Positions 9,801 to 14,449 of a stretch of DNA of 64,000 bases are shown one piece after another. Within the stretch, counting starts at the first letter, position 1. Each line of letters opens with the position of its first letter. Below the pieces are notes generated by a model, which saw nothing but the letters and a program-made list of their open reading frames with translations, did not search any database and was not told where the DNA came from. The position numbers and the translations under genes were made by a program. The stretch is taken from assembly GCA_012295275.1 (NCBI GenBank), contig CM022670.1, positions 6,758,001 to 6,822,000 on the forward strand, read 5' to 3'. The DNA comes from Chrysomallon squamiferum. Its lineage: Eukaryota > Animalia > Mollusca.

Positions 9801-10541
9801 ATGACAACGTACAGCGGGATAGGGGTGATGTCGGGTACATCAGTGGATGGTCTGGATTTGTGTTATGTGGAGTTTACTGGAGACATCAGTTCCGACGTGT
9901 GGGGATACTGTATAAAGAAAGCTGTCACACTGCCGTACAGCAGTGACTGGATTTCCAAGCTGAAGAAGGCCCCGAGGCTTTCTGGGTTAGACTTGATCAA
10001 ACTGCATGTCGAATACGGCCACTTTGTCGGACAGTGCGTTAGTGAATTTATCGACAAAGAATTAATCAAAGTCGATTTCGTGGCGTCGCACGGTCACACA
10101 GTCTTCCACCAGCCTGACAAACGTTTCACGTTCCAACTGGGCTGCGGAGAAACGACGGTCACACATTTCAGTTGTCCGTTTGTCTGTGACTTCCGATCCA
10201 AGGACGTCGCTCTTGGAGGACAGGGGGCGCCACTCGTTCCTTCAGGAGAGAAATATTTGTTTCGCCAGACAGATATCTGTTTGAATCTTGGCGGTATCGC
10301 CAATATCGGTCTGAAAGGAGAGCGGGGATATGACATATGTGCCTGTAACATGGTTCTCAACTACCTCGCTAACAAGCTAGAGAACGGGTTGGGGTACGAC
10401 AAGGATGGACAGACAGCCAGACAGGGACAAATCTCCCAGGAGCTTCTCGACGATCTGGAAGCGTTGTCTTACTTCAAAGAACCACCGCCCAAGTCTCTAG
10501 GATACGAATGGATTTCACAGAATGTGTTTCCACTACTAGAT
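9801..10541 (+). CDS. anmK: Anhydro-N-acetylmuramic acid kinase, exon 1 (247 aa)
   Basis: Motifs GVMSGTSVDGLD, ASHGHTVFHQP, FTFQLG, DFRSKDVALGGQGAPLVP, LNLGGIANI, YDICACN, YDKDG..AR.G and PPKSLG.EW are AnmK family signatures. Phase-0 donor gat|gtaaga at 10542. Confidence 0.95.
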
Positions 10542-12130
10542 GTAAGATTTTTTACAATTTATTCTTCTGTCATTCTTTGTTAAATATTGTAATAGATAAG
10601 CTGATGATGACTTAGTTATATACTTTGTTTTACACATCACTTGATAAATCAAAACCGATATTTTTAATTCTTATCCAGTTTTATGATTTGCTGTATTCTA
10701 TAATACTTATAATCAACATTGCTTTTATTAGAGAAAATATTATTTGATATGTGTTACATATTTTCTCATTAGTTAAACCAAGAAAAACAAAACATCGATC
10801 AACAAAAGACTGTTGTCGATCTTTAGGGGAGATATTGTTTTGTCTTCTTCATCATCTTTTCTTTTTTCTTGTTTTTTCTTTTTTTTCACTTTCATACGCG
10901 ATATTCAGGTTTCATATTGTTAGATAAACAAGTTTGTGCACCCCTTGATCATTTTTATGTTCTGAATTTGAGTGAGTCAGAAAAAGATAATAAAAAAACA
11001 AAAACACTTGAAATATCTAACCCAATAAATATTTACATTAGATACATTTACCTAAAACACTTGTTCGGAAAGAAAATGCTAAGCAGTGATTTTTATATTT
11101 TTAGATCACTGCTGGTGTTCTGTAAACTGTATTATTCATTTTGTGACTGTCCGTCTGAGGTAAACGATGAGTTTAAAATTCAGCTGTGTCGAATGAATAC
11201 ATTTTAACAAAATCTCGACACATTTTAACAGTAATCTTTACTATATATCCAACACAGCTTGTATAAATTGTCTTACACAAGTAACTCAGAGCTGACCGGG
11301 GGTAGATATTTATATATAATTATGTATCTTACAACACATCTCAAAACAATCTTTATCAGGGCTTTTTTAATACAAGTCAAGGACGATCGTTTGAAATAGA
11401 CCAGTGCATGTAAGTCAGCTGGGACGTCATTGTGTGAATTAAATAAAATACATCAGTTTGTGTGTGGATCTACATCAACAGGTTCGTGTGTATGTGTGTG
11501 AAAGAATCAGTTAGAGAAACAGATCCACACAAACAGGCAGAGAGAGAGAGAGAGAGAGAGAGAGAGAGAGAGAGAGAGAGAGAGAGAGAGAGAGAGAGAG
11601 AGAGAGAGAGAGAGAGAGAGAGAGAGAGAGAGAGAGAGAGAGAGCGCTAAAACTGCACTATCAGTAAGTCATTATAAAAGAAAACACTGTCAGACTAATC
11701 TCTGTCGTTGTCCCTCATTTCTCTTCTGACCTCTTCAGATGTTGTCGTTTTCAGGTCTCTAGGCACTGCCTAACTTGGTATCGAGCTGGAATCCACCAAT
11801 AAAACTTGTTAAAACGAGAAATAAATAAAACGAAATAACTGAGAGCAGTATTATACTGACACAAACTAAGTTACACGAAACACTGCGAAAGAACGCAAAT
11901 GAAAGTAAACATACTAACTAAAAACATGATATTCAAAACAATTTTTCTCTGAGCTCTGTGCATTTCTAAACGAGTTTTATTTCAGTTATTGATCTCAGGA
12001 CGGGTTCTGTATATTTGATATTGGTAAAACTCGTACTGTAACTGGTATGCTAGATGAATCTCCATTATAATACTTTCTCTTCCAGCTGTCCCCTGCGCCT
12101 GATGTAGCAAGGACGGTAGTGTATACTTTA

Positions 12131-12875
12131 CTCAGAAAAATGAATTTAAAAACCTTACTATTAATTTAGCCCTCAAGATGGTGAGTGGTCATAAACACTT
12201 GTTGTTTTTTTTTTCTTGTCAGCATAGGTTGAAAAAGAAATAAAATAAAACATTTCGGCGCAGTTAAATTACAATAATTTATCATATGTTGCAGAAACCT
12301 CTCTCACTGTAAACAGCTAAAGACCTTCAAGTTTAGCACAGATATTACGCAACTGTAACGTTTATACACTAACTGTAACAGTGATGTTATTTTTAGATTG
12401 TAACACGATCCACTGTAATATACTACAAACAGTATCTCGCACTTCAACAAAGGTCTCAGAAAAATGAATTTAAAACCTTACTATTAAAAAGATGGTGGTG
12501 GTATTTTTGCTTGTCAGCATAGGTTGAAAAAGAATTAAAATAAAACATTTGACAGTTAAAACAATAATTTATATTTGCAGAAACCTCTCACTGTAAACAT
12601 GTACGTCATTTAACAGATACAACTGTAACGTTTTACACAACTGTAATGGTGGTTAATTTTACACTAACACGTTCTGTTAAAACAAAAGTTTGATATACAA
12701 AGACAGACAGACAAACAAATGTTACATAATTAAACTGTTAAAACGTGATTAATTTAACTACATGTACGTCACATAACAGATACAGTTACAATTACATGGC
12801 GGCTAATTTCACACTACTCACGTTCTGTCAAAACAAATTTGATATACAGACAGACAGACAAACAAATGTAACTGT
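12131..12875. repeat. Degenerate nested tandem duplications in the anmK intron
   Basis: ctcagaaaaatgaattt...gcagaaacctctc occurs at about 12131 and 12455. catgtacgtca...gacagacagacaaacaaatg occurs at about 12598 and 12761. Confidence 0.8.
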
Positions 12876-14014
12876 TTAAGGAGTTATTCTTTCATATTGT
12901 TTGTGTAATGATGGTGATCGTGAGAATAAACACACTGTCAACACTTTGAATATTTTCATATCGACTATAAATAAGCAAGTCTTTTGTATACCACGACGTT
13001 TGATAAACCTGTCGTGGACGACACTGGGGTCGAACCTTAACCACCAACTCTTTACGGCATTTCAAATTAAATCAACCTATAAATATTTTTAAATTGATTT
13101 TCATTTGTTTGATTCTGTATTAACTTGTCAACCAAAGCTTTGACATAAATTAGGACATTGCTTTATCTTATTGCGTGACACCAATAAAGACATGTATAAA
13201 CAAAACACACACACATCATATTTTATCTGGAAAGTGTACATAAGGTGAACGAACATCGGTCAGCAAATGGTTGTGTAAATTTACTACGTAGATCAGTTCG
13301 TCTGTTTCCCGGATTGACCTTCGAGGTCGCGATAAGACCGAGGCCATTGACCTGATCACGTGAATATCCCGATATAAGGTTTCCGACACTTTGTCTGTCA
13401 TACTATAATTACATACACCTTGTTCTGTCGATAATTAATTAATCTGTTGTCAGCCATATTTCTCATTTTTCAGGTGAACTAGGGGCTGATCTAGGGGAAG
13501 AATTTATGTGAGTGTGTGCGCGCGCGCGCGCGCGTGTGTGTTTCTGAACGATTCCTGCAGATTAAAAGTTGATTACAGTTTTGTTATTTCTTAAAAACGA
13601 CTGTACTGTTCTTTACATTCTCGGATGTTCATTATATTGAATATATTAAGAATATATTTAATACAGACATTTTTCTTTTAATTTTTTCATATTTAACTTT
13701 ATACCATATATATATTTTCATACTAATAAATTACCTCATCCATAATCCGCAGTCAAAATTAAGCAACAACATCTAACTGGTACTGGACCCGAACCCCTTT
13801 TTCTGTACACAAAAACGCAAAATTTTAAAACAACAGTTAAACCAACAGTCTGATGTCCTTGCAGAAATATGACTATTTATTTATTTAAAAAAAAAAAATA
13901 ATAATAATAATAATAATAATAATAATAATAATAATAATAATAATTATTAAATAAATAAATAAATAATAATTTTATTTTTCTGTCTTAATGCTGGTTATTA
14001 CATTTATCTTCCAG

Positions 14015-14449
14015 GACAAGAAATATTCCGTTCCAGACATGCTCCATACATTCGTAGAACACGTGACTCGCAGAATTACGTGCGCTTGCGCCGAGAGCAA
14101 GAACGTGACGCCAGGGGTGGAGCCGCCTTCCATTCTTATCACCGGCGGCGGCGCTTTCAACACGTTCCTCATGAACAAGCTGGACAAGAAGCTGAGAGAG
14201 GCTGGTTTCAAGACCGAGGAGACTGACGAGGACACGATTAACTTCAAGGAGGCTCTCGTGTTCGCTTTTCTCGGCTTGCGGTGTCTTCTCGGCATCGACA
14301 ACATAGTTTCCGCCACGACCGGGAGTCGTTTGGACAGCGTATCCGGGAGCATACACCGACCAGTGGTACAGGTCGTATCCTCGCCGTCAATTCAGGGCCA
14401 GTTCAACTTCCTCATGAAAAGACAGTCTCTTCGCAACGTCCCCTTTTAA
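14015..14449 (+). CDS. anmK: Anhydro-N-acetylmuramic acid kinase, exon 2 (144 aa plus stop)
   Basis: Acceptor tttatcttccag| in phase 0. Translates DKKYSVPDMLHTFVEH...ITGGGAFNTFL...FKEALVFAFLGLR...ATTGS...GSI, the C-terminal AnmK motifs (GGGxxN, EAxxFAxL, TG). Confidence 0.93.
   Translation, partial: DKKYSVPDMLHTFVEHVTRRITCACAESKNVTPGVEPPSILITGGGAFNTFLMNKLDKKLREAGFKTEETDEDTINFKEALVFAFLGLRCLLGIDNIVSATTGSRLDSVSGSIHRPVVQVVSSPSIQGQFNFLMKRQSLRNVPF

Follow-up and report, generated by a model that had tools for sequence, protein, structure and literature searches.

We found an intact gene, anmK, for a kinase of the AnmK family in a stretch of 64,000 nucleotides of Chrysomallon squamiferum DNA (contig CM022670.1; "the window" below means this whole stretch). 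Judging from the sequences, it is likely that this spliced kinase gene of molluscs and annelids goes back to a single transfer out of a Bacteroidota-type bacterium, and there is about an even chance that its product salvages the 1,6-anhydro-N-acetylmuramic acid (anhydro-MurNAc) of digested bacteria. The gene consists of two coding exons and one intron:

9472..9800, + strand: 5' untranslated region of anmK, minimum extent (RNA contigs start at 9472, 9477 and 9535; the true start is possibly further upstream)
9801..10541, + strand: anmK coding exon 1, residues 1-247 (Pfam AnmK, E 4.9e-46; aligned to Pseudomonas AnmK; carries S14, D16, T100, R132, N168 and D178)
10542..14014, + strand: anmK intron, phase-0 GT-AG, 3473 bases (identified by its splice sites; skipped in the RNA contigs)
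14015..14449, + strand: anmK coding exon 2, residues 248-391 and stop (Pfam AnmK, E 6.6e-11; GGG loop and E326; three RNA contigs overhang into its first bases)
14357..14446, + strand: 30-residue C-terminal tail of AnmK with a basic KRxS motif, missing from most bacterial relatives

The spliced frame was open over 391 residues. The start ATG at 9801 and the stop at 14447-14449, both placed by a preliminary description of the window made from the letters alone, proved exact, and the AG acceptor lies at 14013-14014. The GC content was 0.49 in exon 1 and 0.54 in exon 2, against 0.32 in the intron. Both exons exceeded the PF03702 gathering score of 24 bits (157.9 and 42.3, respectively), which places the protein in the AnmK family; the ESM Atlas gave the same family name and nothing further. 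Five public runs contained the stretch, four of them recorded as RNA, from a single study and filed as metatranscriptomic. In three of the four runs compared, all three from one study, exon 1 was covered by RNA contigs of 2.2-2.6 kb that passed directly to the opening bases of exon 2. In the fourth run, whose kind was not recorded, short repeats were the only match. Because the RNA contigs join exon 1 to exon 2, the gene is transcribed and spliced.

A search with exon 1 gave 7999 relatives, of which the best 120 were listed; the top named ones were animals, and Bacteroidota came next, at about 50% identity. Among these matches were orthologues from 20 named molluscs, all of them gastropods or bivalves and 54-83% identical, including Lymnaea, Patella, Haliotis, Mytilus, scallops and land snails, and one from Owenia. 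The closest named relative was a protein of Gigantopelta aegis, with 79% identity over the full length. A 50%-representative search (150 listed of 7539) added an orthologue from Capitella teleta. Named cephalopods, oysters, brachiopods and leeches were absent from the 120 matches listed, where loss and an unnamed row are indistinguishable, and so were named ticks and rotifers. Existing database annotation of the mollusc and annelid proteins is AnmK-like. Other bacterial and archaeal AnmKs had about 30% identity. All 15 prokaryote loci found were Bacteroidota-type; the title showed this for 14, and the remaining one was titled Thalassobius. A MurQ motif lay within about 6 kb of anmK in none of the 15, and murQ was found elsewhere in all five genomes tested.

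As the nearest non-animal relatives are bacterial, at the identity given above, bacterial contamination or a dead insertion had to be considered. This explanation is practically impossible and was ruled out by the spliced contigs, the eukaryotic neighbours of the gene and the orthologues in 22 named animals. With its spliced intron and these neighbours, anmK has the host gene structure and expression of a domesticated transfer.

In a FastTree analysis of 282 rows, the window protein and the 22 named animals fell into a 69-row animal clade with a support of 0.999; 46 of the 69 rows carried no species name. An IQ-TREE analysis of 57 rows (16 of 73 were dropped, the bootstrap had not settled, and there was a long-branch warning) gave 100/95 for the animals, 100/98 for the molluscs, and 100/100 for the animals plus the Bacteroidota-type enzymes against seven other prokaryotes. 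The window protein formed a single ordinary branch. A topology in which 22 Bacteroidota-type rows were held together with the animals as their sister was not rejected (p-AU, from the approximately unbiased test, 0.49; 36 rows), and the nearest bacterial rows included one Verrucomicrobiota-labelled protein. These trees contained no other eukaryotic AnmK (no tick, and none from protists or fungi). In one unnamed protein of the animal clade (P0362), the active site is degenerate and the tail is 90 residues long; this protein is possibly a pseudo-enzyme paralogue.

The position of the intron was read from protein frames rather than from the DNA of the respective rows: valine (GT) stood exactly at the window donor in all 19 truncated mollusc-clade frames, read as genomic exon-1 read-throughs, and in all 13 other truncated frames of the animal clade it followed after another 1-5 codons, within a loop of variable length (one row lacked the anchor). 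The intron thus appears to be common to the mollusc and annelid orthologues. Since the animal proteins form one clade beside the Bacteroidota-type enzymes and apparently have a common intron, a single transfer and a single intron gain before the mollusc-annelid split are likely, and are the simplest reading; the donor was likely a Bacteroidota-type bacterium. A formal alternative, given trees without other eukaryotic AnmKs, is that the gene goes back to an early eukaryote and was lost many times.

A likewise domesticated bacterial anmK, with a Bacteroidota donor and a gained intron, has been reported in ticks, with mention of a rotifer copy (bioRxiv 10.64898/2026.03.13.711553, below called the tick preprint). 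As described there, the tick gene has one coding exon, an intron in the untranslated region, an N-to-C change and a Chitinophagaceae source, whereas in the mollusc gene the intron interrupts the coding sequence and N168 is retained. We infer, from trees without a tick sequence, that the mollusc-annelid transfer was independent of that in ticks. The main text of the tick preprint calls anmK transfer into eukaryotes previously unreported and is silent on molluscs and annelids; a transfer of murQ has been described in ants (PMC13320244). Our literature search, which left most subscription journals outside, found no report of a mollusc or annelid AnmK. The mollusc-annelid AnmK is an older case of a known phenomenon, animal AnmK having already been described in ticks and noted in rotifers. 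It is rare for a bacterial gene to have become fixed in a common ancestor of two animal phyla and to have been retained ever since.

We took as reference the residues D14, T97, R129, N168, D182 and E326 of Pseudomonas AnmK, as given in the tick preprint. All six catalytic or substrate residues are kept in the window protein (D16, T100, R132, N168, D178 and E326); R132 corresponds to the arginine through which the free lactyl carboxylate is bound, and the tick-type N-to-C change is absent. Within the 69-row animal clade, D14 was kept in 67 of 68 rows, T97 in 55 of 69 (S in the other 14), R129 in 65 of 69, N168 and D182 each in 66 of 69, and E326 in 39 of 44, and some of the misses may be misaligned intron read-throughs. 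The best NCBIfam model for the Gigantopelta orthologue was NF007144, of the Bacteroidota type (408 bits; the next model reached 228). Its equivalog cut-off is 436 bits; orthologues scored 408, 385 and 361 (the last partial), and two Bacteroidota enzymes 490 and 460. The bacterial AnmK (EC 2.7.1.170; PF03702; NF007144; PDB 3qbx, 8cpb) has the same domain, fold, and catalytic and substrate residues. The animal gene differs in being nuclear, in its intron, in a C-terminal tail of 15-40 residues, and in an acidic insert near residues 28-32, and the activity of its product is a prediction.

If salvage occurs, lysozyme, amidase and hexosaminidase would act on bacteria that have been eaten or engulfed or live as symbionts, and would release the stem-less anhydro sugar from the ends of their glycan chains and from shed muropeptides; amidase and hexosaminidase are presumably present in molluscs. 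The stem-less anhydro-MurNAc would enter the cytosol via some carrier. AnmK is probably cytosolic, because its N-terminus begins where bacterial AnmKs begin, with no extension. With water and ATP, it would open the ring to give MurNAc 6-phosphate (MurNAc-6P), a step beyond NAGK. GKRP would then cut the lactyl ether to yield N-acetylglucosamine 6-phosphate and D-lactate, and the former would pass into hexosamine metabolism or glycolysis. The same order of steps is reported for E. coli, where AnmK acts on the stem-free sugar (PMC13517164). AnmK together with an etherase (MurQ/GKRP) has been reported in protists, namely the bacterivores Naegleria (PMC9928731) and anaerobic ciliates (PMC13198582), for which the same two-step catabolism was proposed as a means of digesting bacterial walls. 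The conversion of anhydro-MurNAc to its 6-phospho form, suggested in the preliminary description, is plausible in view of the kept residues and of the tick AnmK, which yields MurNAc-6P.

MurNAc-6P without an etherase is a dead end, and GKRP as the downstream etherase is the partner that the preliminary description overlooked. Its statement that no partner gene is visible in the window was borne out within the searches made: neither gene turned up in a tblastn search of the window with queries from two GKRPs and one MurQ, in which short exons may escape, and Pfam found no peptidoglycan families in 136 of the 750 window frames of at least 40 residues (picked by GC and complexity) and in eight chosen frames. 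GKRP is reported to descend from a duplicated MurQ and to be single-copy across animals, and MurNAc-6P etherase activity is reported for GKRP of a lancelet and Naegleria, with 1493 per M per s for the lancelet protein against 3140 for E. coli MurQ (bioRxiv 10.64898/2026.05.08.723886). We searched for GKRP with a frame from a metagenome contig, reached by motif scan (L097), as query. Among the 120 matches listed of 859 relatives, there were 13 named mollusc GKRPs, 10 of which belong to the 20 AnmK-bearing species, including Gigantopelta; in the remaining 10 species, GKRP may rank below these matches. The motifs DASECPPT, ExxEDD, GTSGR and GSSRMK were all kept in the 13 proteins, and the two glutamates of the MurQ/GKRP motifs are, we assume, catalytic. 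DASECPPT is carried by solved MurQ structures and was found in three of seven other invertebrates and two of 64 vertebrates (14 vertebrates were outside the pattern match). A search with long MurQ relatives gave only bacterial fusions among the 120 matches listed; 115 of these have DASEIPPT, so that exact DASECPPT is dispensable for the family. The Gigantopelta GKRP passed the MurQ subfamily cut-off of NF003915 (177 against 168). The presence of GKRP in molluscs as a downstream etherase strengthens the case for salvage. We rejected a conserved linkage of anmK and the GKRP gene, which lie on separate contigs in both Haliotis; a shared contig is compatible in Gigantopelta only. Seven GKRP-type genes with two repeats and no intron, each encoding about 580-620 residues, were observed on metagenome contigs (L025, L033, L039, L047, L057, L076 and L085); some are possibly bacterial, and they bear on the origin of GKRP.

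Several points weigh against salvage. GKRP is near-universal in animals (a sponge, cnidarians and vertebrates are among the matches listed), and its presence therefore makes the pathway possible, not proven; co-occurrence with AnmK is expected anyway, NAGK alone could feed GKRP, and the GKRP evidence comes from other mollusc species and not from the genome of the window species. Anhydro-MurNAc is reported to be confined to glycan ends and scarce in sacculi (PMC12279116), and because of this scarcity its food value would be small. The tick AnmK, which is ovarian and the only animal AnmK assayed so far, is about 500-fold slower than the E. coli enzyme despite its catalytic residues (tick preprint), so that conserved residues are no proof of the ancestral substrate. 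R129 is lost in four of the 69 animal rows (Aplysia, one Mytilus edulis protein and two unnamed rows). Levoglucosan kinase has the same core motifs as AnmK. In a model of the Gigantopelta orthologue, used here in place of the window protein itself (mean predicted local distance difference test score, pLDDT, 94), the best structure matches were AnmK chains (template modelling (TM) score 0.78-0.80; root-mean-square deviation 2.7-3.0), and levoglucosan kinase appeared from rank 18 with similar TM scores. The modelled fold would thus leave the two enzymes barely separated and the substrate unsettled.

These observations bear on a changed substrate, that is, another anhydro or amino sugar (levoglucosan, anhydro-GlcNAc or a host glycan product) and a host-internal role, as suspected in ticks. 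We consider this unlikely, yet worth serious attention. The tick AnmK is described as weakly active, with an ovarian role, unresponsive to injected microbes and independent of Midichloria (tick preprint), and fungal AnmK-like proteins are reported to use levoglucosan (PMC9476349). The loss of R129, the replacement of T97 by S, and 14 animal-specific alignment columns would also fit. On the other hand, every listed pocket residue is kept in the window protein, and a Bacteroidota enzyme assayed in the tick preprint was fully active. The fungal levoglucosan kinase (PDB 4yh5, 4zlu) has family, fold and core motifs in common with the mollusc protein, at 21-23% identity, and is longer, with inserts that the mollusc protein lacks. 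By these missing inserts, and by sequence (E 2.7e-27 for AnmK against 2.2e-18 for levoglucosan kinase), the window protein stands nearer to bacterial AnmK and outside the levoglucosan kinases. The animal AnmKs without R129 (P0043, P0034, P0019 and P0258) are natural probes of a substrate change.

The C-terminal tail also suggests host regulation, which would suit a changed substrate. Mollusc tails have 15-40 residues, while bacterial tails have a median of three, with five of 96 reaching 15. A helix is predicted at 373-387 in the orthologue model (pLDDT about 70). Of 20 tails, 12 had an [RK][RK]x[ST] motif, where core windows of the same length would predict 0.7; the species are related and so not independent. 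Regulation by phosphorylation at this motif is our guess.

The preliminary description offered salvage, silencing of a bacterial signal and creation of a detectable ligand as possible roles. Salvage gained ground through GKRP, and the other two fared less well. For silencing, the same chemistry would clear away what amidase leaves of anhydro-muropeptides of the tracheal-cytotoxin type, and immune or developmental signalling would be dampened. We regard this as quite improbable, and it stands only as a rival. Anhydro-muropeptides are reported to act as signals in the squid-Vibrio symbiosis (PMC12279116), and the scarcity of the substrate suits clearance more than nutrition; however, amidase, which is reported to cut immunogenicity (PMC12279116), would largely destroy the signal before AnmK acts. 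The absence of named cephalopods from the 120 matches listed is weak evidence on the same side.

A symbiosis-specific role, in which the kinase recycles or controls the wall turnover of endosymbionts, is very unlikely. The closest named relative among the matches listed is from Gigantopelta aegis, which we take to be a vent snail with endosymbionts, and the four RNA runs were filed as metatranscriptomic. However, the orthologues named above, from Lymnaea and Patella through to the scallops and land snails, argue against it, as does the ordinary branch of the window protein in the tree. The symbiotic context raised in the preliminary description is thus weak as a specific role, as the gene spans grazers, filter feeders and land snails; symbiosis would be no more than a secondary use in the lineage of the window species.

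For ligand creation, AnmK would open peptide-bearing anhydro-muropeptides to give 6-phospho-muramyl peptides for a cytosolic sensor; this we hold to be very doubtful indeed. The premise that NAGK requires a free C6 hydroxyl and that anhydro-muropeptides escape NOD2 is in print (PMC12279116, PMC13517164). The mammalian logic is sound, since the anhydro bond is reported to cut NOD2 stimulation at least 30-fold (PMC12279116), and the NAGK-NOD2 system likewise has a 6-phospho-muramyl product. NAGK belongs to another kinase family; its substrates are peptide-bearing and non-anhydro, and its product feeds a receptor. Bacterial AnmK works after stem removal (PMC13517164), whereas NOD2 agonists carry peptide; a closing loop is reported to gate the sugar site (PMC10570956), and tick anmK was not induced by microbes (tick preprint). 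Ligand creation is weak because it requires a peptide-bearing substrate, while the kept carboxylate-binding arginine (R132; 65 of 69 rows) and the gated pocket speak for a stem-free sugar. NOD2 orthologues are known from vertebrates, which also counts against it. Equally doubtful is the fuller version, that a bacterial kinase kept since before the mollusc-annelid split unlocks the anhydro ring also on peptide-bearing fragments and, under control of its tail, delivers 6-phospho-muramyl peptides to a sensor. If true, a peptide-accepting AnmK would give these animals a defence, lacking in vertebrates, against the evasion that lytic transglycosylases afford to bacteria.

If salvage, the reading that we favour, is true, molluscs and annelids run a two-step wall-sugar pathway composed of one transferred gene (AnmK) and an old eukaryotic MurQ descendant (GKRP). 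The invertebrate GKRP etherase would gain a second source of substrate, and the pathway would provide a test case for a domesticated AnmK beyond ticks.

The window is AT-rich eukaryotic DNA containing microsatellites. Pfam analysis of the eight chosen frames gave the following neighbours of anmK:

339-665, + strand: cyclic-nucleotide phosphodiesterase exon (PF00233)
30491-31684, - strand: last exons of a Cys-loop ligand-gated ion channel (PF02932)
52788-53744, + strand: single-exon frame like a rhodopsin-family G-protein-coupled receptor (score under the Pfam cut-off)

Two frames at 17386-18616 (+ strand), with cysteine-histidine knuckles and no Pfam match, resemble what we take to be a decayed element of the LINE (long interspersed nuclear element) type. 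Within the anmK intron, two alike stretches of about 330 bases each were spotted by eye at 12100-12900.

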